In this document: piece after piece, positions 7,648 to 58,731 of the stretch
Layout: each line of letters opens with the position of its first letter
How positions within the stretch are numbered: the first letter of the stretch is position 1
NCBI GenBank assembly: GCA_963733035.1
Contig: CAVTBU010000005.1
Location: 512,001-576,000, forward strand
Origin: Pirellulales bacterium
Lineage (GTDB): Bacteria > Planctomycetota > Planctomycetia > Pirellulales > PALSA-1355
Direction of reading: 5' to 3'
DNA length: 64,000 nt
Notes under the pieces: model-generated
What the model was told of the DNA's origin: nothing
The model's database searches: none
Seen by the model: the letters and a program-made list of their open reading frames with translations, nothing else
Translations under genes and position numbers: made by a program

Positions 7648-7735
7648 AGCGGAACTCGCCTGTTGATCGACTCCCCGTGCCGGTAGAATTTCAGCCGGCC
7701 CGGAGTTTTCCCTCACCACCCAACCGAATGCCGAA

Positions 7736-10700
7736 ATGTCGACAGACTCCAATACCGCCGAGCTTCCCAAGCAATACGATCACGAGGCCGCCCAGAGCCG
7801 CTGGTACCCGTTCTGGAAAGCGCAGGGCTACTTCCATAGCGAGCCCGATCCGAACCGCAAGCCGTTCACGATCGTCATTCCACCGCCGAACGTGACCGGT
7901 GCCCTGCACCTGGGGCACGCGCTTAATAACACGTTGCAAGATACGCTCATCCGCTGGCGGCGAATGCAGGGTTACAACGCACTCTGGATGCCCGGCACCG
8001 ACCACGCCGGCATCGCCACCCAGGCCGTGGTCGAGCGGCGACTGTTCGAGGAAGACAAGCTCACCCGCCACGATCTGGGCCGCGCGAAGCTCGTCGAAAA
8101 AATCTGGGCGTGGAAAGAAGAGTACGAAAAGCGCATCCTCGGCCAGCTCGAACGGATGGGCTGTAGCTGCGATTGGCAACGCACGCGGTTCACCCTCGAC
8201 GACATCTGCGCCGGGCCGTGCGTCACACCTTCTTTCGCTTGTTCAAAGACGGGCTCATCTACCGCGGCACCCGACTAGTGAATTGGGACACACATCTGCA
8301 AACAGCGGTCAGTGACGACGAGGTATTCCACGAAACCGTTCAGGGACACTTCTGGCATCTCAAGTACCCCGTGATTGACGCCCTGCCCGGCGAACCGGAG
8401 CATGTGAGCATCGCCACGACGCGGCCGGAAACGATGCTGGGCGATACGGCCGTGGCCGTGCATCCCGATCCGGGAGCGGCCCTCGACGCCTTCGAAGCGG
8501 AATTGAAACAAAAACTGGCCGCGGCTCCGGCGAAAGAAAGGCCGGCCGTTCAGGCGCAACTCGGAGAATTGGCCGAGCGGCGCCGCACGGTGCTTCCGCA
8601 GTTGATCCACCTGCGCGACATGGCGCGCGCTGGCCGCAAGGTGATGCTGCCGCTGTTGGACCGCCCAATCCCGCTCGTGGCCGACGAGTGGGCCAAACCC
8701 GAGTTGGGAAGCGGCTGTGTGAAAATCACGCCGGCCCACGATCCAAATGACTACGAGGTGGGCAAACGGCAAGACTTGCCGATGGTCAACATTCTCAATT
8801 CCAACGGCACGCTGAACGACAACGCCGGACCCTACCAGGGACTCACGATGAAGGCGGGCCGTGAGCGGGTGGTGGCTGATCTCGAATCGCTCGGTCTGCT
8901 CGAAAAGGTCGAGGACCGTGAAATCGAATTAGCACATTCCGACCGCTCGAAGATGCCAATCGAGCCGTACCTGGCCGACCAGTGGTTTGTGAAGATGGAT
9001 CGGCTGGCGCAAAGCGCGATGGATGCGGTGACCGATGGACGCGTCAAGATCGTGCCGCCGCGCTACGGCCGCGGTTATCTCGACTGGCTCGGCGAAAAGC
9101 GCGACTGGCCGGTGAGCCGTCAGCTCTGGTGGGGACACCAGATTCCCATCTGGTACGCGCGCACTGCCAGCGAAGCCGATTTAAGAAAAGCCTTTGCAGG
9201 ACGTGACGATGTTTGCTGGCACCGCGACGCCGAACACGACCAGTGGCTCGTTTGCGCGCTCGAAGAGGACCTGACCGAAGACGCCGTTGCAGGCCACAAG
9301 CTCACGCGCGAAGTTGACGTGCTCGACACCTGGTTCAGCTCAGGTTTGTGGCCACACTCGACACTTGGTTGGCCGGATAAGACCCCGGAACTCGACTACT
9401 ACTACCCAACCAGCACGCTCATCACCAGCCGCGACATTATCACTCTGTGGGTGGCCCGCATGGTGCTGCTGGGAATCTACAACGTGGGCGAGGTGCCGTT
9501 CCACGACGTCTACATCCACCCTAAGATTCTCGACGGCTACGGCGAGGGCATGTCGAAGTCGAAGGGCAACGGTGTGGATCCGCTCGACGTAATCGAAAAG
9601 TTCGGCGCCGATTCCCTCCGCTTCAGCCTGGCGTACTTGACCACCGAAACACAGGACGTGCGAATGCCGGTCGAGTTCGAGTGCCCACATTGCCAGGCAG
9701 CAATCGAACAGACCAAGAAGAATCGCGTGCAACCGCGTGTGGAGTGTAAGAAGTGCGGCCAGCCGTTTTCAACCCAGTGGGCCAACAAACCCGAGGATCG
9801 AGCCCTGCCGCGCGGGGCCGTCATTAGCGAGCGTTTCGAGCTGGGGCGCAATTTCTGCAACAAGCTGTGGAACGCGGCGCGGTTCGCATTGCTGAACCTT
9901 GAGGGTTACACGCCGCGACCGGTGGGCGAGCAAGAACTGGCCGTGGAAGATCGCTGGATCTTGAGCCGTCTGGCAACGGTCACCGCGGAAACAACGGCAG
10001 CACTCGAAACCTACCGCTATGGCGACGCGGCCCGCGTGCTCTACGACTTCGCCTGGAACGAGTTCTGTAGCTTCTACGTCGAGATGGCCAAAGGGCGATT
10101 GCAAGACGAACGGGCTCGCCTCGTGGCCCAGCGCGTGCTGGCACATACGCTCGATTCCATCGTGCGACTGCTGCACCCGATGATCCCGTTCATTACCGAA
10201 GAAATCTGGCAACGGCTGGCGGAGGCCGCGCCCCGACGTGGATTGACCCAACCGTCGCCTGCTGCAGAAAGCGTGATGATCGCTCCCTGGCCGGAAGCCG
10301 ACGCTGCGCGGCAAGACCCCCAGATCGAAGTTCGCTTCGCGCAGTTTCAGGAAGTGCTCAAGGGATTGCGCGACATCCGCAGCCGACAAAACATCCCGCC
10401 TAAGGCCAGGCTGCATTTTTCCGTTCGTTGCGATGCGCAGATGTCGAATCTGCTCAAGCCGATGGAGCCCTACTTCGAGTCGATGGCCGGCGCAGGCAAC
10501 GGCCTGGGGTGCCGACATCACAGCGCCAGAAACCAGCGCCGCGTTCTTTGCTTCTGGCGCCGAAGTGTTTGTCGATCTGGCCGAGCACATCGACCTCGAC
10601 GCCGAGCGCATCCGGCAAACCAAAGAACGGGACCGATTGGCCGGCGCGATCTCCCAGAAGGAAAAACAACTGGCCAACGAAAACTTCGTCAGTCGAGCCC

Positions 10701-10804
10701 CAGCGGCGGTGATCGAAAAGGAACGGGCGGCCCTGGGCCAATTGCGCGAGTTGCATACCGCCACGGAGGCAGCCCTGGCAAAACTCGCTTCGGCACGAAA
10801 GTAG
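7736..10804 (+). CDS. valS: Valine--tRNA ligase (apparent frameshifts near 8211 and 10492, probably sequencing errors)
   Basis: PPPNVTGALHLGHA (HIGH), ATTRPETMLGD, GMSKSKGN (KMSKS) and C-terminal coiled coil LANENFVSRAPAAV, spread over three consecutive frames. Confidence 0.95.
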
Positions 10805-11111
10805 CACAAGCTGCGCCCCTCTTGTCCCCACGCGTTCCGATAGTCACCATCCGACGCCGGACGCCACATTTTCCCGCCCCCAAAGTCGAAGACACTCCAA
10901 TACAATTGTCTCCGGCGGAACCCCTTTTTGGTTCCAGCCCTTCCATCGATGTCGGGGGCAAACACGTCGCAACTGATAGACTGGGCGCTATCGCGTCGAA
11001 TTTCGAACCGCCAACTTTTGTCGGCCACTAGCCCGCTGGCGGCAGCGCCAACTATAATCGGTGGTCGCCATCTAAATCCGCTTGTCTCGGTTCAAAGAAA
11101 AGGTGCCGCAT

Positions 11112-37132: not shown

Positions 37133-37252
37133 ATCTGTGCCGATACTCTAGAGGTCCTGTCCACGAAAACCTTGCCACGCTTGGCGTTGGCAGGATAAGA
37201 TGACGGCTCCGGCACCCTCCCGCCCAACGCCATCCCCGAGGCCTCTGGCACG

Positions 37253-39499
37253 ATGCACGAGTGGATGCATAGAATCGCACGGCTGCACACCGTGGTCGCT
37301 CTGCTTTCCGCGCTGTTCGGTTGCGGTTCGCTCCATGCAGCGGACCTGCCGGCCTTCAACAATGGCACGTGGCCGTTTTGCCCGCCGCGGCGGCCCGAGA
37401 TTCCCGCCGTCGAAAACGGGGCCTGGGTCGCCAATCCGATCGATGCGTTCATCCTGGCTAAGCTCGAGGGCAAAGGGCTGGAGCCCAACGGAAAGGCCGG
37501 CCGACTGGCACTGCTGCGTCGGCTCACGTTCGATTTGACTGGCTTGCCCCCGACACTGGCCGAACAACAAGCCTTTTTGGCCGACCGGCAAGAGGGCGCC
37601 TTCGAGCGCGTCGTTGATCGCTTGCTCGACTCGCCCCACTACGGCGAGCGCTGGGCTCAACACTGGCTCGACGTGGTTCGCTATGCCGAGACCGACGGTT
37701 TCAAGGCCGACGAATTTCGCCCCGATGCATACAAATATCGCGACTACGTGATCCGGGCTTTCAATGCCGATTTGCCCTATGACCGATTCATGCGTCAGCA
37801 GCTTGCCGGCGACGAACTCGAACCGAACAATCCCGATGCCGTGGTGGCCACGGGCCTCAACCGGCTGTACCCCGACGAATCGAACGCGGCCGACCTTCGT
37901 CAGCGTCGGCAGGAGATCCACGACAATCTGACCGAGACCACGGCCCTCACCTTCCTGGGGCTAACGGTCGGTTGCGCACAGTGCCACGATCATAAGTTCG
38001 ATCCAATCACGCAAGTCGACTATTTCCGTCTGCAAGCGTTCTTCGCCACGCTGTTGCCGCGAGACGATGCGCCGGTGGCCTCACGTGACGAAATCGAGCG
38101 CTACAACGAGGAGCATGCCGTCTGGGAGCAGGCGACCAAATCGATTCGTGCCGACATCGAAACGCTGCTCGACCCCAAGCGTCAGGCCATGCTCCGAAGT
38201 ACGATCGAAAAATTCGATCCGGACATTCGCGAGGCAATCGTCACGCCCGCCGAAGAGCGATCCTGCATGCAACAGCAAATTGCCTTCCAGGCGATGCGCT
38301 ATGTCTCGCCGAAGATGGCCGGCATCACCGGTGACAAACTGAAGGGAAATGAGCGAAAACGATACGACGAGTTGGCAACTCAATTGGCCAGTTACGATCG
38401 TCTGAAACCTCGGAAACTACCCACGGCAATGGCGGTCGTCGATGCGTCGGCCGAGGCCCCTCCGACACACCGCCTGGCGCTGGGCAACTATCGCAAACCG
38501 CAAGAACAGGTGGAGCCGGGATTCCCGGAATTCCTCGGGGCCAGCGAACCCGTCATCGAGGCTCCTCCCGTCGGCGAGGAATCCTCCGGTCGCCGCGCGG
38601 CACTGGCCAATTGGCTGTGCCGCGAGGACCATCCGCTAACCGCGCGGGTCATGGTCAATCGCATCTGGAAACATCACTTTGGCATAGGCATTGTCGCCAC
38701 GCCGAACGACTTCGGCGCCATGGGCGACCCGCCGACGCACCCCGACCTGCTCGACTGGCTGGCGGTGGAGTTTGTCGCACGAGGCTGGAGCATCAAGGCG
38801 ATGCATCGCCTGATCGTTACGTCCTCTACGTACCGCCAATTATCGCTCATCGACGCCGACAATCCCTTGCAGGCTGAAGCGATGCGGGTCGACGGCAGCA
38901 ATCGTCTATTGTGGCACGCCCGACGCCGCCGTTTAGAAGGCGAGGCGATGCGCGATGCGATGCTCGCGTTGTCCGGCGATTTGCAGCTGCGAATGTTTGG
39001 ACCGAGTGCCCGGCCGATTCTTCCGGCCGCCATTCAACCCGGTTCAAATTGGGGAACCGACAAATCGCCGCAAGATCGCAATCGCCGGTCGGTCTACATC
39101 TTCGCCAAACGCAATCTGAAGTTCCCGCTGCTGGAAATTTTTGACCTGCCCGATCTGCACAACAGTTGTCCGCAGCGGACGACGACCACTACCGCACCGC
39201 AGGCGCTCGCACTGCTGAACGGCGAATTTTCGCTCGAGCAGGCCCGGCACTGGAGTGAGCGACTGGCGGCCGAGCATCACAATGACACCGGTGCGATCGT
39301 CCGCGGCGCCTGGCAGACGGCATTCTCCCGCGACCCCACGGCGGAAGAGCGTGTGGCGGCCGAGGATTTTATACGCACGCAAACCGAGATCATCGCCGGT
39401 CGCGCTCAGCCAGGCGACATGACACCGCCACTGGCCTCCGCACTGGTCGACTTTTGTCACGCGATCTTCAATGCCAACGAGTTCCTCTACATCGACTAA
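37253..39499 (+). CDS. DUF1549/DUF1553 (PSCyt2/PSD1) planctomycete protein
   Basis: NPIDAFI, LLRRLTFDLTGLPPT, YGERWAQHWLD, CAQCHDHKFDP, PLTARVMVNRIW, PQALALLN. Confidence 0.95.
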   Translation: MHEWMHRIARLHTVVALLSALFGCGSLHAADLPAFNNGTWPFCPPRRPEIPAVENGAWVANPIDAFILAKLEGKGLEPNGKAGRLALLRRLTFDLTGLPPTLAEQQAFLADRQEGAFERVVDRLLDSPHYGERWAQHWLDVVRYAETDGFKADEFRPDAYKYRDYVIRAFNADLPYDRFMRQQLAGDELEPNNPDAVVATGLNRLYPDESNAADLRQRRQEIHDNLTETTALTFLGLTVGCAQCHDHKFDPITQVDYFRLQAFFATLLPRDDAPVASRDEIERYNEEHAVWEQATKSIRADIETLLDPKRQAMLRSTIEKFDPDIREAIVTPAEERSCMQQQIAFQAMRYVSPKMAGITGDKLKGNERKRYDELATQLASYDRLKPRKLPTAMAVVDASAEAPPTHRLALGNYRKPQEQVEPGFPEFLGASEPVIEAPPVGEESSGRRAALANWLCREDHPLTARVMVNRIWKHHFGIGIVATPNDFGAMGDPPTHPDLLDWLAVEFVARGWSIKAMHRLIVTSSTYRQLSLIDADNPLQAEAMRVDGSNRLLWHARRRRLEGEAMRDAMLALSGDLQLRMFGPSARPILPAAIQPGSNWGTDKSPQDRNRRSVYIFAKRNLKFPLLEIFDLPDLHNSCPQRTTTTTAPQALALLNGEFSLEQARHWSERLAAEHHNDTGAIVRGAWQTAFSRDPTAEERVAAEDFIRTQTEIIAGRAQPGDMTPPLASALVDFCHAIFNANEFLYID

Positions 39500-39501
39500 T
39501 C

Positions 39502-40975
39502 ATGCCGAATTACTCCCACTTCCTGGGTCCGAACGTACCGCACTTTGCCACACCCGTCTCGCGACGCGATTTTTTGGCACGGGCCGGAGCGGGCTTCGGA
39601 AGTGTGGCGCTGGCGTCCCTGCTGTCGCAACAGAGCGCGGCGGCGACCACGAACTTGTCGACCAGAGGAATTGCGGACACGCCCTTTAGCGGTCGGTCCC
39701 ACTTTCCGGCACGGGCGAAGAACGTTATCTGGTGTTTTCTCGACGGCGGCCCCAGCCACCTCGATTTGTTCGACCCCAAGCCCCAGCTCGACAAACTCGC
39801 CGGTAACCCCCTGCCCGACAGTTTCGACCGTCCGCTCACGGCGATGGGCAAAACGGCCTTCACGCCGCTGATGGGCACTAAGCGCAAATTTGCTCAGCAC
39901 GGCCAGTCGGGCATTTCGGTCAGCGATTGGCTGCCGGAGATTGCTACCTGTGCCGATGAGCTGGCCGTCATTCGCAGTTGCCATGCGGACGGTTTGAATC
40001 ATGTTGGCAGCGTCTGCCAAATGAACACCGGCAGCATTTTGGGCGGCCGCCCGTCGCTCGGTGCGTGGTGCCTGTACGGATTGGGGAGCGAAAGCCAGGA
40101 TCTGCCTGGCTTTGTCGTGCTGACCGACAACGCCAGCGACCCGCCCGGTGGGAATCGCAACTGGGGCACGGGCTTCATGCCGGCTACTTTCCAGGGAACC
40201 AAGTTTCGCGACGGCAAGACACCCATTCTGCACGTGGCCCCGCCATTTGACACCGACGCTGTCCGACAGCGGCGAAAGCTCGATTACATTCAAACCCTCA
40301 ATCGGCAGCACCGCGGAGAGCGAGCGGTCGACGACCGGCTCGAAGCTCGCATTGCCAGCTACGAACTCGCCTTCCGCATGCAGGCGGCCGCACCCGAAGC
40401 GGTGGACATTGCGGACGAAACCGCCGAAACCCGCGCCCTCTACGGCCTCGACGACAAAGCCACCCATAACAACGGCCGCAATTGCCTGCTCGCCCGCCGG
40501 CTTGTTGAGCGGGGCGTCCGCTGCGTGCAGATCTACATGGGCTCGGGCAGCAAATGGGACGCTCACACGGATATGGAAGGGAACCATTCGGCCCGCTGCC
40601 GTGAGAGCGACCGCCCGATTGCCGGATTGCTAAAGGACCTCAAGCGCCGCGGCATGCTCGATGAAACGCTCGTGGTTTGGGGGGGCGAATTCGGCCGCAC
40701 GCCGATGAGCGAGAGTGGCAACGGTCGCGATCACAACCCTTGGGGCTTCACCATCTGGATGGCCGGCGGTGGCATTAAGAGAGGTATTACTTACGGCGCG
40801 ACCGACGAAATCGGCCTGTATGCCACCGAGGGGAAGGCGCAGCGTGAACGATCTGCATGCCACGATTCTGCATCTTTTGGGCCTCGACCATGAACAACTC
40901 ACTCTGATGCACAACGGACGCGCCGAACGACTGACTGGCGTGGCGGGTCGTATCATTACCGAAATCCTGGCGTAG
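39502..40975 (+). CDS. DUF1501 Tat-exported protein (frameshift near 40838)
   Basis: SRRDFL Tat motif, [38 protein letters not shown]; the tail [11 protein letters not shown] is in a second frame. Confidence 0.93.
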
Positions 40976-49476: not shown

Positions 49477-49700
49477 GTTTCCGCCGATTGTCCGGGGGGT
49501 AGTGACATTTGCGGAAAATGGGTTACAAAAGTGTTAGCGAACATCGGTCAGAATCTCCCGTAACACAAACAGGAACTGGGGGAAGCTTCTGGTGCGATGC
49601 GTCAACATTCACCCCGTTCGGTTGCCGTTGGGGCGACACCGGCACTCGAACAACAGCTTCCCACCGTCGTCTTACGCCCCCGCTTTGTGGAGTTCTCCTC

Positions 49701-50321
49701 TTGAGCACCGCAGCTTATCCAACGATTGACCGTTCGCGTGCTCTGCACGTCGTTGCCCGTGTGATCTCCGACGCTTTGAGCCCTGCCGCGCTCGCCGTGC
49801 CCGGATTGATGCTGGGCGTCTGGGCCAGTGGTGTGCCCGGCACGTTTCGATATGCATTACTGTATGCGGCGGTCGCAGTGGTCGTGCCGATGGTGTACTT
49901 GGTGTGGTTGATGAAAACCGGTCGAATCACGGACTTCCATTTGCCCAATCGGCGTGAGCGTTTCGGTCCCTTTGCGGTTGCGTCCGCATCAGCGGCCGGT
50001 GGTGTGGGACTGCTCCTCTATTTGGGCGCGCCGTCGGCATTTGTAGCGCCGCTGATCGCAGCACTCGCGCAGATCGTGCTGCTGTTTGTCATCACGCTAG
50101 CCTGGCAGATCAGCATTCACACGGCGACCAGCGCCGGGCTGGCAACCTTTGCCGTCTTGGCCCTCGGCGGAGCGGCCGTCTTGCTGCTGCTTCTGGTGCC
50201 GGTCGTGATGTGGGCTCGCTTGTACCTGCGGCGGCATACGCTCGCACAAACCTTGGCGGGCGCCGGGCTCGGCGTGGCCGCATTCTGTGGACTGTTTCTC
50301 GTGCACGGCATCTGGTGGTAG
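49701..50321 (+). CDS. PAP2-superfamily membrane protein
   Basis: ISIH and WARLYLRRHTLAQ motifs, multiple TM; TTG start after GGAG. Confidence 0.75.
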   Translation: MSTAAYPTIDRSRALHVVARVISDALSPAALAVPGLMLGVWASGVPGTFRYALLYAAVAVVVPMVYLVWLMKTGRITDFHLPNRRERFGPFAVASASAAGGVGLLLYLGAPSAFVAPLIAALAQIVLLFVITLAWQISIHTATSAGLATFAVLALGGAAVLLLLLVPVVMWARLYLRRHTLAQTLAGAGLGVAAFCGLFLVHGIWW

Positions 50322-50331
50322 ACGCCCGGTC

Positions 50332-52659
50332 CTACCGCACCTGCAAGCCGCTTTCGGCAACGTCACTTTCTTCGGTACTACCAGCGCGGTCCACTTTGCA
50401 GCCGCGGGTGAAGAATCGCCCCAACGGACCTGCCAGAATGACGGGCGTCAGCGCCAGGTCGGCCACGAGGCCAAACCCCAGCAGCGTGAACATCAACAGG
50501 CCGAACCGCCGGGTCGGCATGAAGCTGCTCAGCGCAAAGGTGAGCAGCCCCAGCGACACGATGGCAGTGCTCTGATAGATTGCGCCGGCCGAGTGCTCGT
50601 AGGCCATGACGACGGCATCCTTGCGTTTCAGCCCCATGCGTGTGGCGCGGCGAAACCAGTTGGCAAAGTGGACGGTGTCGTCCACGCATACCCCCATCGC
50701 CACGCTGGCGGTCATCATCGTACCGATGTCGAGTGCAATACCCAGCCAACTCATCAGCCCAAACACCACGGTCATCGGAAACACGTTGGGCAACATCGTC
50801 AGCAGGCCGGCTCGCACGTCGCGAAACATAATGCTCATCACGGCGGCAATCATGGCGAACGCGCCGAAGAAGCTCTCGGTCAGGCCATTGAGCAGCGCGC
50901 GCTCGGCCATGTAAACGACCGGCGTCATCCCGGTATACGTCACACCGTCAAGCCCCTTGACGCCCTGCGAACGTTGGCGATCGAGCGCCGGCTCGACATG
51001 ATGTCGAATGTCGTCGATGAACGCACCGTAGTCGATGTCCGCCAAGGCCGCCACGCGCAGACTGATGCGCCACCACTCCTGGCCCGTCTTTTTGTCGACG
51101 GTCAGATAGCCTTCCTTCACGAAGTCCTCGCGATGGGCGTCGAGCCGCTTGGTGAGCACGTCGCGCCGCAACAGCCCACGCACGCTGCCGCTCCGACTTG
51201 GCCTCAGATCGGGCGCGAACGTGACGGCGGACATCGTGCCGCCAACAGCGGGAATCTCCTGAGCGGCCTGTTGTATTCTTTCGACGGTCCGCATTCGCTC
51301 CAGCATCGTTTGGTCGTTGGCCTTTTCATCGAACCGCACGACGAGTTCCATCGGCACCAGCGGGCCCAGGTTGGCCTCCAGCCAGCGGTAGTCGTGTATA
51401 ATTTTCGCGTCCGGCGAAAACAGGCTCATCAGGTTGATTGTCGTTTTGGCCTGGTAGAGCCCCGACCCACAACCAACCATCAGCCCCAAAAACACCAACC
51501 ACACCAGCCGCGGTCGGCCGACGACAAAACTCCCGAGGGCGCGCATTTGCCGGCGATGCTTCGGATCGAGCAGGCTGTCTTCCTCATCCACGAGCCCCTC
51601 GGGCAGCTTGGGGGGCCAAATTGTCAAGGCGGACGGCAAGTACAGAAACATAAACCCGACCGTCGCCATCACACCCAGGGCCGTATAGAAGCCGAAGGCC
51701 TTGATCGGCACCAGTTCGCTGATATACAGCGAGATCAAGCCCATGGCCGTCGTGCCGGACGATAGCGTACAAGGGAGCCAGGCCGCCGTCACGGCCCGCT
51801 CCGGCGCACCGCGCATGCCGCCGTGCAAACAAACGTGTCGATAATAGTTGATCAAATGCATGGCCGTGGCCAGCCCCGCGGTGTATACCACCGCCGGCAT
51901 CGTCAACAGCACGGAGCTCATTTGGCCGCCGAGCACCCAGACCAGAGCCAGGCAGATACCCGCGCTGTAGACACCGCCCACCAACACCATGACGGTCAGC
52001 CGCAGGTCGCGGATATACCACCAGGCAAGCGACAGGCCGACGGCACCGCACAGGCCCATCAGACGCATCAACATCCGCTCGCCTTCCATGTCGATCGTCA
52101 CATTGTCGACCGGCGGTCCGCCCATCCGCAGATTCTGCTCGGAGATTCCCAACTGCTCTGCGTCGTGGTAGACCTGGGCGATCGATTCCCGCAAGTGCTC
52201 GCGTCCCAATGCCGAAAGCGTCAAGGCCACGCAGGTCTGTTTGCCGTTCGGTCCGATGAGCGTCCCCTTCAGCCGTTTCACCGCTTCGCTCTGCGAGAGG
52301 CTCGTCGGCGGGTTCATCAAGCGTTCGAGCACGCTTTCGCCGGTCACCGCGCTTTGGAAGTAGTGCGGTGTTTTCGGATCGCTGGGCATGACCAGGTGGT
52401 CGGCTAGTTCGCCGACGCGCGGGTTGTCGAGGGTGCACCCCTCCCAACTCACCAGCACGAACGTCTCATCGCCAAAGTGCCGCTGGAACTCCTGATAGTC
52501 ACGCGTGGCCTGAAACGTATCCGGGAGCCACTCCTTCACGTCGTTCTTGTTGGTCTTGAGTGCGAGTATGGCCGCCCACACGGTAAATGGCAGCATCACC
52601 ACTACCAAGGCGATGATCGGCCAACTGAACTGCTCGTAAAATGACTTTCTGGCTGCCAT
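50332..52659 (-). CDS. MMPL/RND-superfamily transporter (probable lipid exporter)
   Basis: Two repeats of TM1 + periplasmic loop + 5 TM; GVCVDDTVHF; TTAMGL. Confidence 0.9.
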   Translation of the reverse strand: MAARKSFYEQFSWPIIALVVVMLPFTVWAAILALKTNKNDVKEWLPDTFQATRDYQEFQRHFGDETFVLVSWEGCTLDNPRVGELADHLVMPSDPKTPHYFQSAVTGESVLERLMNPPTSLSQSEAVKRLKGTLIGPNGKQTCVALTLSALGREHLRESIAQVYHDAEQLGISEQNLRMGGPPVDNVTIDMEGERMLMRLMGLCGAVGLSLAWWYIRDLRLTVMVLVGGVYSAGICLALVWVLGGQMSSVLLTMPAVVYTAGLATAMHLINYYRHVCLHGGMRGAPERAVTAAWLPCTLSSGTTAMGLISLYISELVPIKAFGFYTALGVMATVGFMFLYLPSALTIWPPKLPEGLVDEEDSLLDPKHRRQMRALGSFVVGRPRLVWLVFLGLMVGCGSGLYQAKTTINLMSLFSPDAKIIHDYRWLEANLGPLVPMELVVRFDEKANDQTMLERMRTVERIQQAAQEIPAVGGTMSAVTFAPDLRPSRSGSVRGLLRRDVLTKRLDAHREDFVKEGYLTVDKKTGQEWWRISLRVAALADIDYGAFIDDIRHHVEPALDRQRSQGVKGLDGVTYTGMTPVVYMAERALLNGLTESFFGAFAMIAAVMSIMFRDVRAGLLTMLPNVFPMTVVFGLMSWLGIALDIGTMMTASVAMGVCVDDTVHFANWFRRATRMGLKRKDAVVMAYEHSAGAIYQSTAIVSLGLLTFALSSFMPTRRFGLLMFTLLGFGLVADLALTPVILAGPLGRFFTRGCKVDRAGSTEESDVAESGLQVR

Positions 52660-52986
52660 TTCGCGCTTCAAAAAAACCGTGCGTTCAGAATTCAACAACT
52701 GCCGGGCGGCCGTGGCCGGCTCTCACGGTCGCCTTGATCGCCCGGCCAAACCACCTCGATCGCAGGCGTCCGAGCGGCTCGCGACGGGCGAGTGTCCGGC
52801 CATCGTACGGAGCAAAACCCGCGCCGCCCGCGCTAACACCATCCTCGCTGAAGCCCCGGCCTGCAAGCCCTGGTGGGCGGAAAAGTCGCGGCAATTGGCC
52901 CCGTTGAGTCGACAAACGGCGGATCGTGCGGTATTGGTGGTACATTTGGCGCAGCTCTCCGCGCGGGAGAACCGATCGGCCCGTAG

Positions 52987-53001: not shown

Positions 53002-53062
53002 GACCGAATGAGTGAGCACGGCGCATTGCACAGCAACCCAGCATTTCAGACCGGAGCCGTCC

Positions 53063-53431
53063 ATGGCCAAGAAAGCAAAAGCCGCCACGTCCAAACCGAA
53101 AAAATCTGCGACAACTGGCAAGTCCGCTAGCAAGCCCGCGGCAAAGGCGGCCGCTCCCAAGATAGCGCGGAGCAAAACCGCGCCCGCCAAACGCAAGGCT
53201 TCCCATTCGACCACACGAACCCCGGCACCAGCGGTCGTCACCAAGAAAGTCGTCGCGGAAGTTACCGTCCATCAACCCTTGACGGAACGGTTTGGCAGCA
53301 TCGACGAAGCCAAAGACGCCACGCTTGACGCCCTGCTCGAAATCATCGAAGCGGCCGAGGAGCGCCTCCGCGACGTCAAACGTGTCCAAACGTTCGAGGA
53401 ACTCGAACCGCTGGCAAACGGCCGTCTCTAG
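53063..53431 (+). CDS. Histone-H1-like Lys/Ala-rich protein with an acidic helical C-terminus
   Basis: MAKKAKAATSKPKK..KPAAKAAAPK..; GGAG RBS at 53053. Confidence 0.72.
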   Translation: MAKKAKAATSKPKKSATTGKSASKPAAKAAAPKIARSKTAPAKRKASHSTTRTPAPAVVTKKVVAEVTVHQPLTERFGSIDEAKDATLDALLEIIEAAEERLRDVKRVQTFEELEPLANGRL

Positions 53432-53448: not shown

Positions 53449-54273
53449 TCAAAAACGAGCTGCTTCGCGGTCATGACGCCAGCGATAGAGCGTGATCCCC
53501 CAAGAAACCGCGATGTAGTACAGCGGGTAGAGTAGCGACACGAGAGCCAATTGAAACGTCTGCGCCGCGGAGTGGGCATCGGCCGGGGGATCCGTCGTCG
53601 GCATGGCCCACAGTACCCACAGCAGCACGACGACCCACACACCTCCCAGGAAGTTGGTCAGGCGGCTGAGCACGGCACCCCGGCTGGGGTAGAGATAGTA
53701 GCTCGGTACGAACGTCAGTCCGGCCAAAAGCAGAATCAGCACCGCTGCCAGCCAGCTCGGCATCCCCAATACATACAAGTAGAACGCCACGATATTCCAG
53801 TAGGATGGAAAACCCACGAAGTAGCCGTCGGGCGTCTTGGCCGGCACCTGGCAAAATCCGTACGCGCTGGCCACGAGCGCCACGACCAGCACCCATTCCA
53901 TGTTGTGTGGCAGCAACTCCGCCCGCCACACCAGCAACAGCGGTAGCGAAGTGAAGGTTAGAAAGTCGATGATGTCGTCGAGCTTGGCGCCGTCAAAATT
54001 GGGGAGCAATTCCTTTACGCGCAGCCGCCGCGCGAGCGAGCCGTCGGTCGAATCAACCAGACAGGCGACGAGCATCAAGGCAAACGCCCAGCGAAACGCC
54101 TCGGGCGTTCCCTCGACGATGCAAACCGCCATTCCCGCGGCCAGCAAGAGCCCGGCTGCGGTGAACGCGTGGGCAAACCAAGCGATCCAGGCCGGCCAAG
54201 GGGGCTGCTGGGCGTGAGACTCGGCGGCCCCACGCTCAACGCCCTGTTCGAGTTCGATTTCGCGACGAATCAT
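53449..54273 (-). CDS. pcs: Phosphatidylcholine synthase (CDP-alcohol phosphatidyltransferase, Pcs type)
   Basis: Pcs-type motif DG-x2-AR-x8-P-x3-G-x3-D-x3-D (DGSLARRLRVKELLPNFDGAKLDDIID), HAFTA, KT..YFVGFPSYWN. Confidence 0.88.
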   Translation of the reverse strand: MIRREIELEQGVERGAAESHAQQPPWPAWIAWFAHAFTAAGLLLAAGMAVCIVEGTPEAFRWAFALMLVACLVDSTDGSLARRLRVKELLPNFDGAKLDDIIDFLTFTSLPLLLVWRAELLPHNMEWVLVVALVASAYGFCQVPAKTPDGYFVGFPSYWNIVAFYLYVLGMPSWLAAVLILLLAGLTFVPSYYLYPSRGAVLSRLTNFLGGVWVVVLLWVLWAMPTTDPPADAHSAAQTFQLALVSLLYPLYYIAVSWGITLYRWRHDREAARF

Positions 54274-54291
54274 AAGTCCATTGCGTTTTGA

Positions 54292-55866
54292 TTAGACGTC
54301 TTCAGCCGGTTCGGGAAGCGGTCGCGGCGGATCCCAGCGAGCGGTCAGCCTCGAGACAACCGGCAATAGAATCATACCTGACGCAGCCGACAGCGTGCGC
54401 ATGGGAAACAACGTGGCCTCTCCACCAGAGTCGGCCCAGGCCGCTCGGCCACCGGGAAGCACGCCTGCGAACCACTCGGTGTAGGGAATGAACTGCGGCA
54501 CGGCCAGAATTGGTTCGCCACCGCCCAGTCGTAGCACAAGTGCCACGACAAACGCCACGATCGAACCCGTGCGGTTGGCGCGCGGATCGTAAAGCGCGTA
54601 CACCAATTGGGGAAACAACAGCACGAACACCAGATCGCTGGTGAAGAACCACAACTTTTGCACGCTCTGCACGTGCAATGCAAGCACGGCCGCCAGAGCC
54701 CCCAGTACTAGAATTGATAGCCGAATCACTCGCCGCATATTGAGTGCGGAGATTTTCGGCGTTACCAGTGCACGAAAGAAATTCCAACTGAGCATCGAGC
54801 CGGCCGAGAGTACCGAGGCGCGTAAAGCTGGACGTTACCGCTCCTACGATCGCGGTGAGGCCCAAAATGGCGATGAACGGCGGCAGTGCATACTGAAACA
54901 ACAACGGCAGCGCCATCGACGGAGAGGCTGCCAACTGCTCGCGTGCCGCGGCCGTCCAATCGGGATAGGCAAACGCCGCCAGCCCCAGCAGCAATGGTGG
55001 AATCGTCAGCAACATCGTCAACAGGCCCGCGACGATCGAATGCCATTGAGCCTTGACCGGAGTTTGACAGGCCTGAATGCGTTGGAAGTAGCAGTTCCAC
55101 GGAATGCCACCCAGCACAAGCATGATCGACAAGTCCCACCACCCGACGATCCGCGGGGCGGTCCAATAGCCGTCGGCTTCGGTTGGCGGCAACCACCGGG
55201 CCGCCGATCCCTTGGCGGCAACGTACTCGCTCCAGCAGGACTCAAGCCCACCGGACGCGCCAGCGCCAGGGGCAACGCCAACATGAGCCCAATCGGAATC
55301 AGCATGAACTGCACGGAATCGGTATAGCCCACGCTCCACATGCCGCCCAACAGCGTGTAGCCAGTCACCACCGCGGCGGAGACAATGATCGCCGTGGTCA
55401 GATTGATTCCCAGCATCACGCCAAACGTAGCGCCAATGGCCACCAGCAGTTCAGCGCTCCAAAACACTTCGCCGAACATGGCCGGCAGCGACAACACGGC
55501 CGACCAATGTTTACCAAAGCGCGCCGCGAACGGATCGACAAGCGTAACGAACTGTAACTGCCGCATCCGCCGCGCGAAGAAAAAGCCGCCTAGGATCAGA
55601 CTCAACCCGAAACAAACGCCCCCCTGCCAGCCCGAGGCGATGCTTGTCATTACCCCTTCGGCCGTGCCGAGCAGATAACCACCGTCGATCCAGGTGGCGG
55701 CCATCGTGACCGTGGCCATCCAGAATGGCATGGCACGGCCCGCAACCAGCAGTTCGGAAGCCGTGCCCAACTTGAGTCGCTTCGAAGCACGCCAACCGAC
55801 GACGAAGAAAACCAGATACAGCGTGGCCACGGCCGCTATGCCCGCCCAATTGGCCTCGTGCATCAT
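54292..55866 (-). CDS. Sodium:solute symporter, high-affinity choline transporter (CHT1/SLC5A7)-like; frameshifts near 55258 and 54820
   Basis: TMAATWIDGGYLLGTAEGV, LSLILGGFFFARRMR, VTLVDPF, GEVFWSA, YTLLGGMWSVGYTD, LGGIPWNCYFQRI, SDLVFVLLFPQL, LRLGGGEP, FPMRTLS. Confidence 0.85.
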
Positions 55867-56930
55867 GTCACTCCGCCGCTAATCGGCCGCAGCCGCCGCC
55901 GGCCCAGCGACCGACGCTTCGATGATCTCGGCGCCGCCGGCGCTGTCGGGGCAGGCCTCGCGAGCAACGTTCCGCGAACCCGAGCCATTAAGCCTGGCGA
56001 GCCAAGATACAGCGCGAGCAGGTGACGCTTGCCGACCTGGCAACAGGCATCAAGTTGACAAACTTTGTAGGCCTCCACGCCCCAGGCGCCGGACCATAGG
56101 CCAGTGTACCCCAATGCCTCGGCGCACGACCGCCGTCCATCAATAATGTGATACCGCTTCAGCAGTCGGTCACAACTGTTGTTGACGAGCAGCAGGCCTG
56201 ACGTCTGCGACATGGCCTGACCGTGAAAGCGTTCCGGCAGCAGCCAGTCGTTGTTAATCGCAGCCGCGAACAATACGACTTGCGCTGCTTCGCGCCGAGC
56301 ATGCACCCGCTCATCGAGCACATGACCACACAATGTTCCACCACCCAACAAATGGAGTGCTCCGGTCGCGGCCCGCGCACCAAAACTGTGCGCCCACAGA
56401 CTGAGGGGTACTTGCGGATCCAAATGGTCGAGAAACCAGGCCATGTAGTAGCCCGTGACGTTCGTGCGATTGGCCTTCACGCGGGCATCATTGACGAGTC
56501 CTCGCACCGAATCGCTGGGCCACGACCAGATGATAAACCGCAACGGCTCGTCGCCCGCGCAGCGAATGAGCGCACGATAGGCCGACCACCCTTTCGTAAA
56601 TGCATCGTCCGCCGGAATGCGATTGCCGTGCACGAAAACGGTCGTCGACATGTGCGGGTCTTCCGCCGCAAGTAGTTCCTGTAAACTCGAACGTGTCCAC
56701 TGACGCTGGCAATCGTAGCGCCAGTATTGCAGTCGCTCGGCGTCGCAGGCGACGTTGCATCCCAAAGTGCGATCGCTCACCAGCCAAAGCTGGTCCTGCA
56801 TGCGGACGGAGCAGCAACACGCGGTGGAACTGGCCCAGGCCACTTGCGCGCCAATGCAGACTACCATCCAGGCGAAAACGGCTTTCAAAACCAAACGAGT
56901 TGCAACTTGCCGTTGCGGTGCGACATCCAT
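55863..56930 (-). CDS. Secreted alpha/beta-hydrolase (DUF900-like)
   Basis: Signal peptide, VFVHGN, IWSWPS, nucleophile elbow AHSFG, LGYTG and a late His. The true stop may be at 55879 if a frameshift lies near 55932. Confidence 0.78.
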   Translation of the reverse strand: MDVAPQRQVATRLVLKAVFAWMVVCIGAQVAWASSTACCCSVRMQDQLWLVSDRTLGCNVACDAERLQYWRYDCQRQWTRSSLQELLAAEDPHMSTTVFVHGNRIPADDAFTKGWSAYRALIRCAGDEPLRFIIWSWPSDSVRGLVNDARVKANRTNVTGYYMAWFLDHLDPQVPLSLWAHSFGARAATGALHLLGGGTLCGHVLDERVHARREAAQVVLFAAAINNDWLLPERFHGQAMSQTSGLLLVNNSCDRLLKRYHIIDGRRSCAEALGYTGLWSGAWGVEAYKVCQLDACCQVGKRHLLALYLGSPGLMARVRGTLLARPAPTAPAAPRSSKRRSLGRRRLRPISGGVT

Positions 56931-57174
56931 GGTGGCGTTCGGTACCGGGCGTGAAGATTGTGTCGATCAGCACGTTTGCGCGGTCTACCCAAGCCGCTGG
57001 CTAGGGCGCCCGTCACGTAGAATGTAGCATTTTTTCAACGTGGGTGACGTCAAATCTTGACCCGTTGAGAAAAGTCAACACGGCGCGCTTGCCCTTCGAT
57101 CCGCGCGGGGTAGAGTTGCATGGCCCCGCGATTTGTCGCGGTGGAATTTACCTTTCGTGTTGGAGCTATGAATC

Positions 57175-57432
57175 ATGAAGAGGCTTCTGATTCTCTCGGC
57201 CGTAGTGCTGGCGGCCGGCGCGAGTGGTTGTAAGAATTGCTCGCCCTGCGGTGGCACGACGGCCTATCGACCGTTTTCGCCCACGCCGGCGTGCTGCACT
57301 CCGACCACGCAGTCGTACGGAACGCCGGTGTACTCCACCCCTGGAGCAATCGCGGCGCCGACCTTGTCCGATCCGCAGGCAGTGCCGATGCAGACATACC
57401 CCGGCCCCGAGGCGTACACGCCGGCCAATTAG
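57175..57432 (+). CDS. Small Cys/Pro/Thr-rich lipoprotein
   Basis: MKRLLILSAVVLAAGASG|C lipobox; GGAG RBS; candidate promoter TTGCCC-16-TAGAGT at 57089-57116. Confidence 0.75.
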   Translation: MKRLLILSAVVLAAGASGCKNCSPCGGTTAYRPFSPTPACCTPTTQSYGTPVYSTPGAIAAPTLSDPQAVPMQTYPGPEAYTPAN

Positions 57433-57565: not shown

Positions 57566-57771
57566 CCCCAGTGGCGTGCCCGGCTGTCGGCGCCCGAAAC
57601 ACGGTGAAACAATCGTTTTTTTCCCAATCTTCCGCAAACGGCCAGACACGATGCGCCATTTTGCTCGGCAGTGACTAGAATCGAAGAATACTGGCTCCTT
57701 CGCCCCGTCGTCGGGCCAGGCGCGTGTCTGACAACTTGCACGGACGCCCCTTCTACATCTGGGTTGACGCC

Positions 57772-58731
57772 GTGCGTACGCTCCTGATTTTTTTGCTGTT
57801 GATATCGTCCGCGCAACATGTTTGCGCACAATTCAAAGACGAGAACACCGACGACGGCAAAGGCCCCCTGTTGGGAGCCGAAGCCACCAGCCGCCTCAAA
57901 GTTGGCATCACCGTCAAAGCCACCGGCGGTACCATCTTTCGCGGCAACGCGGCCATCCCCATTCCGATGGATTGGCCCGAGCAACAAGTCAAGGTCATCG
58001 ACGAAGACGTCTCGGCCACCGTCAGAAACATGACGTACCGCGACGTCTCCGGCGGCGGTGGACTACGGCAGATGATCGTGCAGATTCCTCAGCTGCCAGG
58101 CGGCCAGGAAGCTCACGCGCTGGTGACGTTCGAAATCACACGCCGCGCGCAAGCGCCCCCAGCCGACACGTCCATCTATAAAATCCCCAAGCGGGTCGAC
58201 CGTTCGATCATGTTGAACCTCGGCCCCAGCCCCTTCATCGAAAGCCGGCATCCCAAGATCATCGCGGCCGCACGAGAAGCTGTCTCCGACGACCAAGACG
58301 CCTGGCATCAGGTCGAGGCGATGTACGAATGGGCTCGTAGCCACATTCAATACAAGGAAGGCAGCGTGAAGGGCGCCGCCCGCGCTCTGGCCGACGGCGA
58401 AGGTTACACGGATGACATTTGCTCGCTTTTCATCGCCATGTGCCGCGTGCAGAAAATTCCGGCCCGCACCGTGTTCGTCAAGAACCATTGCTACGCGGAG
58501 TTCTACTTGGAAGACGACGAGGGCCAGGGCCACTGGTTCCCCTGCCAGCCGGCCGGCCCCCGTGAATTCGGCGGGCTAGACGACGTGCGGCCGATCTTGC
58601 AAAAGGGGGACAATTTCAAGAACCCCGACAACTCACGCGAGCGGTTGCGGTACCTTCGCGAGGATTTCCACGCCGCGGGCCGGGGTGGCAGCCCCGAGGT
58701 GAAGTTCGTTTCGGAACCGGTGGCCAACTGA
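57772..58731 (+). CDS. Secreted transglutaminase-like domain protein
   Basis: GAARALADGEG..LFIAMCRVQKIPAR..HCYAEFY..GHWFPC; GTG start with a signal peptide. Confidence 0.85.
   Translation: MRTLLIFLLLISSAQHVCAQFKDENTDDGKGPLLGAEATSRLKVGITVKATGGTIFRGNAAIPIPMDWPEQQVKVIDEDVSATVRNMTYRDVSGGGGLRQMIVQIPQLPGGQEAHALVTFEITRRAQAPPADTSIYKIPKRVDRSIMLNLGPSPFIESRHPKIIAAAREAVSDDQDAWHQVEAMYEWARSHIQYKEGSVKGAARALADGEGYTDDICSLFIAMCRVQKIPARTVFVKNHCYAEFYLEDDEGQGHWFPCQPAGPREFGGLDDVRPILQKGDNFKNPDNSRERLRYLREDFHAAGRGGSPEVKFVSEPVAN

Follow-up and report, generated by a model that had tools for sequence, protein, structure and literature searches.

A CHT/SLC5A7-like transporter gene next to pcs: a probable two-gene module for turning choline into membrane phosphatidylcholine in a Pirellulales bacterium

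The minus strand of the 64,000-nt stretch of Pirellulales DNA analyzed here (the window, meaning the whole of that stretch) carries at 53449-56930 a trio of genes for an alpha/beta hydrolase, a transporter of the sodium:solute symporter (SSS) family and a phosphatidylcholine synthase (pcs). We consider it likely that the last two of these genes make up a choline-to-membrane phosphatidylcholine (PC) module to which the hydrolase is not specific, the frameshifts in the locus being most likely assembly indels. In the proposed scheme, a CHT-type (SLC5A7-like) Na+/choline symporter would import free choline, and Pcs, encoded 18 nt downstream, would condense it with CDP-diacylglycerol to yield membrane PC, the module as a whole sitting downstream of what would be a hydrolase gene of the genomic backbone. 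The observed basis of the module consists of homology, conserved residues, adjacency and co-occurrence; the CHT and pcs genes are presumably co-transcribed.

The features of the locus are given below, where P0001 is an intact orthologue of the transporter (523 aa; 85% identical to the N-terminal piece from the window) that served as transporter reference, and X4 designates contigs from a different organism, 90-95% alike.

53449..54273, minus strand: pcs, phosphatidylcholine synthase, 274 aa, intact (PF01066, NCBIfam models and motif)
54292..54822, minus strand: C-terminal piece of the CHT transporter, stop codon at 54292-54294 (76% identity to P0001 residues 347-523)
54821..54823: indel site 2, inside the conserved SSFSAS segment (window one base longer than the X4 contig, where letter 54822 is absent)
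54823..55258, minus strand: middle piece of the CHT transporter, about 145 codons in a shifted frame, holding GGIPWNCYFQR (77% identity to P0001 residues 201-349)
55258..55260: indel site 1 (window one base shorter than the X4 contig, which has a C inserted behind 55259)
55259..55866, minus strand: N-terminal piece of the CHT transporter, start ATG at 55866 (PF00474, E 2.5e-14; 85% identity to P0001 residues 1-208)
55863..56930, minus strand: DUF900-like alpha/beta serine hydrolase with an N-terminal hydrophobic helix (PF05990, invariant S/D/H, predicted model)
56931..57174: upstream intergenic region, presumed promoter region (from its position only)

The three packed minus-strand genes described in an earlier, sequence-only reading of this DNA were thus found at 55863-56930 (hydrolase), 54292-55866 (SSS transporter) and 53449-54273 (pcs), and reading of the sequence confirmed the 18-nt spacing between the transporter stop and the ATG of pcs. 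The ATGA overlap between the hydrolase and transporter genes that it had also described is, in contrast, probably an artefact, the X4 relative having one extra base behind 55929. In the X4 frame, the hydrolase stop falls at 55879-55881, which leaves 12 nt to the ATG of the transporter, and the hydrolase tail becomes acidic and Ala-rich, resembling the tails of most orthologues compared; in the assembly, the last ~22 hydrolase codons are probably frame-shifted, and the true stop is likely to be the one at 55879-55881. Across the intergenic region, a small lipoprotein-like gene (57175-57432, plus strand) diverges from the hydrolase gene. A scan for the sigma-70 consensus found no site in the 56931..57174 spacer, and a combined promoter and terminator scan returned counts no higher than the shuffled expectation.

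Matches to SSF/sss were obtained on two of the three transporter pieces, and matches to TIGR00813 likewise on two. The intact orthologue scored 420 bits against sfCHT (9rws; E 1.7e-124, residues 3-517) and 258 bits against human CHT1 (8j74; E 2.6e-75), other solved SSS transporters (SGLT1, the next best at 61 bits, SGLT2, SMVT, NIS, SMCT1, SiaT-like and vSGLT) reaching 61 bits at most. The equivalog models for PutP (35 bits, cut-off 515) and PanF (28 bits, cut-off 328) scored far below threshold. The CHT1/SLC5A7-like identity proposed earlier is borne out by these scores, on which the transporter is placed in the CHT/SLC5A7 clade of the sodium:solute symporter family, and all five CHT1 motifs that had been named in support of it are present in the translations from the window (TMAATWIDGGYLLGTAEG, LSLILGGFFFARRMR, LGGIPWNCYFQR, SDLVFVLLFPQL and LRLGGGEP). 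Alignments read by eye showed that the aromatic choline cavity of sfCHT (W99/Y126/W176/W298/W445) reads W/F/W/W/W, the change of Y126 to F being the one conservative cavity change in the clade, that the Na+ site (A97/T98/V100/Q226) reads A/T/I/Q and that the gate (R84/Q303/R304) reads R/Q/R. The same cavity, Na+-site and gate residues occur in the window's own transporter pieces, whose substrate is probably choline. S307 of sfCHT is an alanine in the window clade, at a position called poorly conserved among bacterial homologues in the text of PMC13220886. Proteins of this kind already carry the label 'high affinity choline transporter' in JGI automatic annotation.

Downstream, the encoded protein belongs by PF01066 (E 1.9e-07) to the CDP-alcohol phosphatidyltransferases, and models of phosphatidylcholine synthase took its five best NCBIfam places (E 1.1e-44 to 9e-31), the best non-Pcs model being that of archaetidylserine synthase (E 4.2e-08). 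Scores for the Pcs equivalogs were 108-153 bits, below their cut-offs of 300-440, with serine and other synthases at 33 bits or less. The protein also fits the motif DGX2ARX8PX3GX3DX3D printed for Legionella Pcs (PMC7867332), reading DGSLAR, 8 residues, P, 3, G, 3, D, 3, D. The top NCBIfam models and the Legionella-type motif together favour the earlier naming of this gene as pcs, and its product would be expected to make PC.

The order hydrolase-transporter-pcs recurred in 11 of 11 loci of relatives, the transporter being intact in 10 and shifted in its tail in the remaining one (L002). Among a wider set of 80 loci from Planctomycetota and Acidobacteriota, the best 80 of 290, pcs lay downstream on the same strand in 58 and within less than 400 nt in 47 of these, counts that are not independent because the loci are mutually related and were selected with two peptide patterns from a single subclade. 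In another planctomycete family (G144), pcs directly follows a CHT gene whose product is 46% identical. Presence and absence across 41 relatives pointed the same way, 14 genomes having both CHT and pcs, none CHT without pcs, 2 pcs without CHT and 25 neither. The genetic coupling of CHT and pcs thus reaches well beyond the genome of the window. It is not universal: 22 of the 80 CHT loci had no adjacent pcs, only 5 of them being explained by less than 900 nt of downstream sequence, and among 10 genomes with such a locus, 9 had pcs elsewhere and 1 gave no pcs match. Conversely, one relative (G019) keeps hydrolase-pcs without CHT, and Pcs is therefore not strictly dependent on a CHT transporter. 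No paper describing a link between CHT and pcs was found in the literature searched.

Further candidate members of the module were considered and set aside. In 11 loci the gap from CHT to pcs is 0.9-2.4 kb wide; judged by reading their ORF starts, the inserts there resembled toxin-antitoxin genes, HNH-nuclease-like genes and unrelated ORFs rather than a conserved gene. The MMPL/HAE3 transporter gene (50332-52698) and the PAP2 gene (49509-50321) of the window were rejected as members because no more than 2 and 6 of the 80 loci, respectively, had them. An apparent transporter-Pcs fusion (P0058, 766 aa, PF00474 and PF01066) proved to be an artefact, its tail running out of frame through the spacer into pcs.

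As assembled, the transporter gene of the window is split over three frames, the N- and C-terminal pieces sharing one and the middle piece of ~145 codons being offset. The two frameshifts postulated by the sequence-only reading were confirmed and could be corrected by comparison with X4, since removal of one base at 54822 and addition of one behind 55259 restored a single transporter frame, X4 being a different organism and the short, same-strain-like contigs X1-X3 covering none of the three indel sites. The third of these is the 1-nt indel behind 55929 in the hydrolase tail, which brings the count to three indels within 1.1 kb. Such clustering would fit a genuine, recently inactivated transporter pseudogene, in a strain whose Pcs would then use another choline route or stand idle; G019 illustrates that CHT can be lost from the lineage while pcs stays, and the one OpuAC-type ABC binding protein found in G000, which could also bring in choline, might supply the other route. 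We nevertheless hold a pseudogene to be unlikely. Each transporter piece is open in its own frame, free of in-frame stops and 76-85% identical to its orthologues, and the same kind of break occurs in other MAGs of the clade (P0058, P0060, G024 and G011). Moreover, the class-I tRNA synthetase gene at 7667-11028 of the same window is split as well (PF00133 positions 2-137 and 138-413), although this essential gene forms a single frame of 1029-1150 aa in 8 of 8 relatives and had no close second copy in G000. With a single-copy tRNA synthetase gene frameshifted too, assembly error is the likelier cause, and indels introduced in assembly most likely account for both transporter frameshifts and for the one in the hydrolase tail. 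The organism therefore probably has a working transporter, and gene calls in the genome of the window should be read with probable assembly frameshifts in mind.

The choline-scavenging operon envisaged by the sequence-only reading stood up with regard to the coupling of CHT and pcs, but not with regard to the hydrolase, which falls outside the module. That the hydrolase could be a functional third member, a secreted esterase freeing choline or a precursor from choline esters or lysophospholipids, is suggested by its same-strand, tightly spaced position in 17 of the 80 loci and in all 11 of the relatives' loci, by the position of pcs directly after the hydrolase gene in G019, and by the attributes of the protein itself. 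The predicted model has an alpha/beta hydrolase fold (pLDDT 90, pTM 0.85) with a hydrophobic N-terminal helix at residues 6-33 and has lipase and phospholipase A1-like fold neighbours; all 38 sequences compared keep S182, D254 and H303, which would form the catalytic triad. No specific function could be drawn from the fold searches, Foldseek yielding TM scores of 0.43 or less and VIA-align a list without a clear leader, made up of thioesterases, lipases and phospholipase A-type (PLA1) enzymes at Z 11-13 (up to 13.2), and neither a cholinesterase nor a choline-releasing enzyme was among the matches listed by either program. Deacylating enzymes, for their part, release fatty acids rather than choline. 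The distribution of the gene argues further against a role in the module: 39 of 41 relatives have it, among them 25 of the 27 that lack CHT, whereas none of the 63 loci (of 80) outside the planctomycete group of the window does, and G016 keeps the transglutaminase-lipoprotein-hydrolase arrangement without CHT or pcs. A choline-releasing partnership is thus improbable, and the hydrolase gene is part of a conserved genomic backbone in this Pirellulales family that also includes transglutaminase-like and lipoprotein genes. Its closest known likeness is to the DUF900 (PF05990) hydrolases, with which it shares the alpha/beta fold, the invariant Ser/Asp/His and weak to moderate profile matches (20 of the 38 aligned members reach E <= 0.01, the best of them 1.1e-05), the window hydrolase itself differing in that it scores below the Pfam cut-off (E 0.007, 16.2 bits against 20.5). 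Its Atlas neighbours are DUF900 clusters of Planctomycetota, and a literature search at the level of records found no function for DUF900.

It is very improbable that choline, or a related quaternary amine, is imported for osmoprotection or as a carbon/nitrogen source with pcs adjacent only incidentally, a reading in keeping with the mixed neighbours of the 22 loci without adjacent pcs and with the osmoadaptation and nutrition proposed for sfCHT of a halophile in the text of PMC13220886, given that BCCT and BetA had no match in G000, that no bet or lic gene occurred among the 32 flanking ORFs of 15 pcs-less loci, that pcs is present in 14 of 14 genomes with CHT versus 2 of 27 without, and that the adjacency is seen in two phyla and with a 46%-identical CHT.

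The preferred reading, a CHT-Pcs module, may have a wider bearing. We tentatively propose that CHT-pcs is a compact environmental-choline-to-membrane-PC cassette that moved between soil Acidobacteriota and Planctomycetota and that may give the prokaryotic SLC5A7 homologues their missing role. In a quick IQ-TREE analysis of 82 CHT rows, 20 of the 23 planctomycete rows of the subclade formed one group nested among acidobacterial rows; the tree was rooted on two long outgroup rows, and the direction of transfer is for that reason only a lead. Thirteen rows, L020, L026 and L052 among them, were placed on a single branch of length 8.8, which we attribute to mis-framed or badly trimmed extractions. 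If the nesting holds, the cassette would have reached the planctomycetes by transfer and been placed downstream of a hydrolase gene that they already had. The conserved pairing in two phyla hints at what bacterial CHT transporters are for. The sole paper on a bacterial CHT (PMC13220886, 2026) calls the physiological role of the prokaryotic homologues 'unclear' and suggests osmoadaptation or nutrition, and its main text makes no mention of operon, genomic context, pcs or neighbor; the CHT-pcs pair in two abundant soil phyla would be a concrete alternative, namely high-affinity choline scavenging for membrane PC. CHT would then be a third transporter class among the routes known to feed the Pcs pathway, and uncultured Pirellulales and Blastocatellia would be likely makers of PC from external choline. 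The expectation that gene context would assign a substrate to bacterial SLC5A7 homologues had been overtaken by publication, since choline transport by sfCHT has been directly shown, whereas the physiological link to Pcs stands. The CHT-Pcs module is an ordinary but useful one.

Of the known systems, the nearest is sfCHT of Salimicrobium flavidum (9rws/9rwt), described as a Na+-dependent, HC-3-sensitive choline carrier in proteoliposomes (PMC13220886, 2025/26). The two share the SSS/LeuT fold and a 420-bit alignment that spans almost all of the orthologue, and they agree in the gate, in four of the five cavity residues and in the Na+ site, where V100 reads I in the orthologue. They differ in that the alignment begins at sfCHT residue 45, the window-type protein being without ~40 N-terminal residues of sfCHT, in having F and A for Y126 and S307, and in their hosts, a halophilic member of the Bacillota for sfCHT and a soil planctomycete for the window. 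With human CHT1/SLC5A7 (8j74, 9bfi), residues 8-461 of the orthologue align to 7-462 with the N-termini level, and the five CHT1 motifs are present; like sfCHT, CHT1 takes up choline in a Na+-dependent, hemicholinium-3-sensitive manner. The human protein (580 aa versus 523 aa in the orthologue) has a long cytoplasmic C-terminal tail and a neuronal role in the recycling of acetylcholine, and Cl- dependence is discussed for CHT1 only in the text of PMC13220886. In physiological logic, the closest counterpart is that of Sinorhizobium and Brucella, in which, as described in PMC8371380, the ChoXWV importer feeds the Pcs pathway, with high-affinity uptake of external choline followed by one-step synthesis of PC from CDP-diacylglycerol. 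ChoXWV is an ABC system, whereas the importer predicted here would be an SLC5-family secondary Na+ symporter, whose gene immediately precedes pcs in Planctomycetota and Acidobacteriota.

Three tightly packed minus-strand genes at 53449-56930, claimed from sequence alone to encode a hydrolase, a CHT1/SLC5A7-like transporter (CHT) and a phosphatidylcholine synthase (pcs), were confirmed, with corrections, in the window (C5:512001-576000) of the 6.6-Mb, 10-contig genome (G000) whose closest named relatives are Pirellulales MAGs. Eighteen nt separate the symporter stop from the pcs ATG. P0001 in the following list is an intact 523-aa CHT orthologue used as reference.

7667-11028, plus strand: class-I aminoacyl-tRNA synthetase, split, two successive ORFs matching PF00133 positions 2-137 and 138-413
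53012-53431, plus strand: lysine/alanine-rich ORF, 139 aa, converging on pcs; weak CT392 family match (E 9e-04)
53449-54273, minus strand: CDP-alcohol phosphatidyltransferase ORF (pcs), 274 aa
54292-55866, minus strand: sodium:solute symporter (CHT), ORF pieces in three frames
54822 down to 54292, minus strand: C-terminal CHT piece; P0001 residues 347-523, 76% identity
between the two terminal pieces, minus strand: middle CHT piece, offset frame; P0001 residues 201-349, 77% identity
55866 down to about 55259, minus strand: N-terminal CHT piece, same frame as the C-terminal piece; P0001 residues 1-208, 85% identity
55863-56930, minus strand: hydrolase ORF as assembled, 355 aa
57175-57432, strand opposite to the three genes: small lipoprotein-like gene, upstream
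57724-58731, strand opposite to the three genes: transglutaminase-like gene (PF01841), upstream

Since the ORF at 53012-53431 converges on pcs from the opposite strand, the unit ends at pcs.

The N-terminal CHT piece matched PF00474 (E 2.5e-14), and all five CHT1 motifs named in the sequence-only reading were found in the window's transporter pieces. When all PDB sequences were searched with the orthologue from a related genome, G009 (523 aa, identical to P0001), the best match was sfCHT, deposited as 'SLC5 (high affinity choline transporter) member 7' (9rws/9rwt; E 1.7e-124, 420 bits), followed by human CHT1 (8j74, 9bfi; E about 3e-75, 258 bits), whereas the best other symporter of the superfamily, SGLT1, reached 61 bits (E 1.2e-15) and SMVT, NIS, SMCT1, a putative symporter (5nv9) and vSGLT at most 30 bits each. 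The window transporter itself scored 35 bits against the PutP equivalog (cut-off 515) and 28 bits against that of PanF (cut-off 328). This score gap, used in place of an SLC5 tree with CHT1, PutP and PanF, bears out the assignment to the CHT clade; the JGI pipeline likewise labels many homologues 'high affinity choline transporter'.

The Salimicrobium flavidum protein sfCHT (PDB 9rws) is the subject of a 2026 Sci Adv paper (PMC13220886; preprint October 2025) that reports Na+-dependent, hemicholinium-3-sensitive choline uptake into proteoliposomes and gives the cavity, Na+-site and gate residues. In the PDB alignment, read by eye, the choline cavity W99/Y126/W176/W298/W445 corresponds to W/F/W/W/W in the orthologue, the Na+ site A97/T98/V100/Q226 to A/T/I/Q, and the gate R84/Q303/R304 to R/Q/R; S307, poorly conserved according to the same paper, is replaced by A. 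The cavity, Na+-site and gate residues are likewise present in the window's own pieces. Gene context had been put forward as the route to a substrate for bacterial SLC5A7 homologues, a proposal now overtaken by the choline transport demonstrated for sfCHT.

We next consider the broken transporter frame. Contigs from another study and a different organism (run X4; 90-95% alike) differ from the window by one base left out at 54822 and one base put in behind 55259, which together give back a single transporter frame, as sought by the sequence-only reading. A further base behind 55929 changes the hydrolase tail from basic to acidic and Ala-rich, as in most orthologues compared, and puts the stop codon of that gene at 55879-55881, leaving 12 nt before the transporter ATG; the abutting or overlapping ends seen by that reading are therefore probably an artefact. 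Contigs from the same-strain-like runs X1-X3 (at least 99% alike) miss all three indel sites. Assembly error is the probable source of the frameshifts, because the window's tRNA synthetase, a single-copy gene, is split as well (break at about 8167-8275) and other MAGs of the clade show breaks of this kind (homologues P0058 and P0060; genomes G024 and G011). The synthetase forms a single 1029-1150-aa frame in 8/8 relatives, and no close second copy was found in G000, other matches being 25-32% identical. An intact CHT frame of about 520-530 aa, counted from its start codon, was present in 10 of the 11 relatives' loci examined. That the same breaks mark a real pseudogene in G000 appears unlikely. 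An apparent SSF+CDP-OH_P_transf fusion in P0058 (766 aa) was rejected: its out-of-frame transporter C-terminus reads through the spacer into pcs. P0060 carries a similar shifted tail, and both breaks look like assembly frameshifts.

The pcs product matched PF01066, and in NCBIfam its five top-scoring models were all five equivalogs for phosphatidylcholine synthase, at 153 to 108 bits, each below its strict cut-off; serine, inositol-phosphate or cardiolipin synthase models gave at most 33 bits. The sequence also conforms to DGX2ARX8PX3GX3DX3D, which PMC7867332 gives as the Legionella Pcs motif, in agreement with the proposed pcs identity.

CHT matched at E <= 1.5e-74 in 13/40 relatives of G000. 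Among the 41 closest genomes, 14 had both CHT and pcs, none CHT alone, two pcs alone (G019 and G040) and 25 neither, a pattern among kin rather than a statistical test. The two genes lay side by side on one contig in 12/13 relatives, the exception being a 1340-contig assembly (G017) with CHT and pcs on separate contigs, and the order hydrolase, transporter, pcs held in 11/11 relatives' loci. When 300 genomes were sampled evenly across the phylum, only two other CHT carriers were present (43-46% identical), one (G144) with pcs directly downstream and one with CHT on a 4.4-kb contig without pcs.

A wider scan of one genome per species, with the patterns PWNCYFQ and TM[TA]ATW[VI]D and hence covering one subclade, yielded 290 confirmed relatives, of which the best 80 were kept (Acidobacteriota 47, Planctomycetota 23, 'Bacillota' 8, Bacteroidota 1, unlabelled 1). 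Same-strand downstream pcs was found in 58 of these 80 loci, so that the linkage is not unique to G000; the gap was below 400 nt in 47 of the 58 and 0.9-2.4 kb in the remaining 11. Small ORFs occupy the gap in Blastocatellia-type loci (L035, L036, L040, L062, L070, L078, L085); judged from their first residues, inserts in the longer gaps resemble either a PIN-type toxin paired with its antitoxin or an HNH nuclease. Five of the 22 loci without pcs have less than 900 nt of downstream sequence, and 9 of 10 tested genomes whose CHT locus lacks pcs carry a homologue elsewhere (E <= 3.5e-48). Among 32 ORFs flanking 15 pcs-less loci, no choline gene was seen, whether bet, lic or another. In G000, neither BCCT nor BetA was matched, and a single OpuAC-type binding protein was found.

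Other neighbours were also recorded. The lysine/alanine-rich ORF adjoins pcs in 7 of the best 80 loci and is present too in the pcs-less G016. Just past pcs, at 49509-52698, lie two genes: one on the minus strand for an MMPL/HAE3-type RND transporter of 788 aa and one on the plus strand for a PAP2-like phosphatase, linked to the module in only 2 and 6 of the best 80 loci, respectively. At 37199-40890 (plus strand), the gene for a DUF1549/DUF1553 (PSCyt2/PSD1) protein precedes that for a DUF1501 protein, a combination characteristic of planctomycetes.

In a quick CHT tree of 82 rows, 20 of 23 planctomycete rows clustered together (SH-aLRT 85), surrounded by rows from Acidobacteriota. CHT transfer between Planctomycetota and Acidobacteriota may be taken as a lead rather than as established, because an artefactual long branch carries 13 of the rows and rooting depends on two outgroup rows that are themselves long. 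Eight loci (L036, L056, L062, L066, L068, L069, L078, L089) lie on contigs labelled Heliomicrobium, Heliobacteriaceae or Clostridia; these 'Bacillota' bin labels look wrong, since their CHT rows are interspersed, by short branches, with those of Blastocatellia.

The hydrolase matched DUF900 weakly (16.2 bits, cut-off 20.5), and 20/38 aligned relatives matched it at E <= 0.01; S182, D254 and H303 were invariant across the 38 sequences. Its confident structure model (pLDDT 90) has an N-terminal helix (residues 6-33) that fits a signal anchor or signal peptide, and its fold neighbours form a flat list (Z 11-13) of thioesterases, venom phospholipase A1, Tle3/Tle4 lipases and pancreatic-type lipases, with Foldseek TM at most 0.43. 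The choline-releasing role proposed for it is not supported. The gene is kept in 39/41 relatives, including 25 of the 27 without CHT, and is absent from 63 of the best 80 loci, those outside the window's planctomycete group. In G016, transglutaminase, lipoprotein and hydrolase genes are followed by other genes, with neither CHT nor pcs; in G019 (L098, G019:C136:3500-10500), the hydrolase gene is followed directly by pcs and then an MMPL gene, with no transporter between and the remaining synteny as in the window. The hydrolase is thus part of the local backbone, into which CHT-pcs is variably inserted; the G019 arrangement still gives a choline-releasing role a slight chance.

The choline-to-PC reading of CHT-pcs is well supported. 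Homology, conserved residues and linkage were observed directly; we infer the module's substrate, coupling ion, co-transcription and product. A Na+-coupled CHT would take in choline from soil or plant material, and Pcs, translated from a transcript shared with CHT, would join it to CDP-diacylglycerol, yielding phosphatidylcholine. A full-text literature search returned no description of a CHT-type symporter beside pcs, and 'operon', 'genomic context', 'pcs' and 'neighbor' do not occur in the main text of PMC13220886. Each of the two proteins falls within a known family, and feeding of Pcs by choline uptake has a precedent in the ChoXWV ABC system (PMC8371380). There an ABC importer feeds Pcs, whereas here a CHT-type symporter is encoded beside pcs, a variant arrangement in which what remains new is the proposed physiological link between a bacterial CHT and Pcs.
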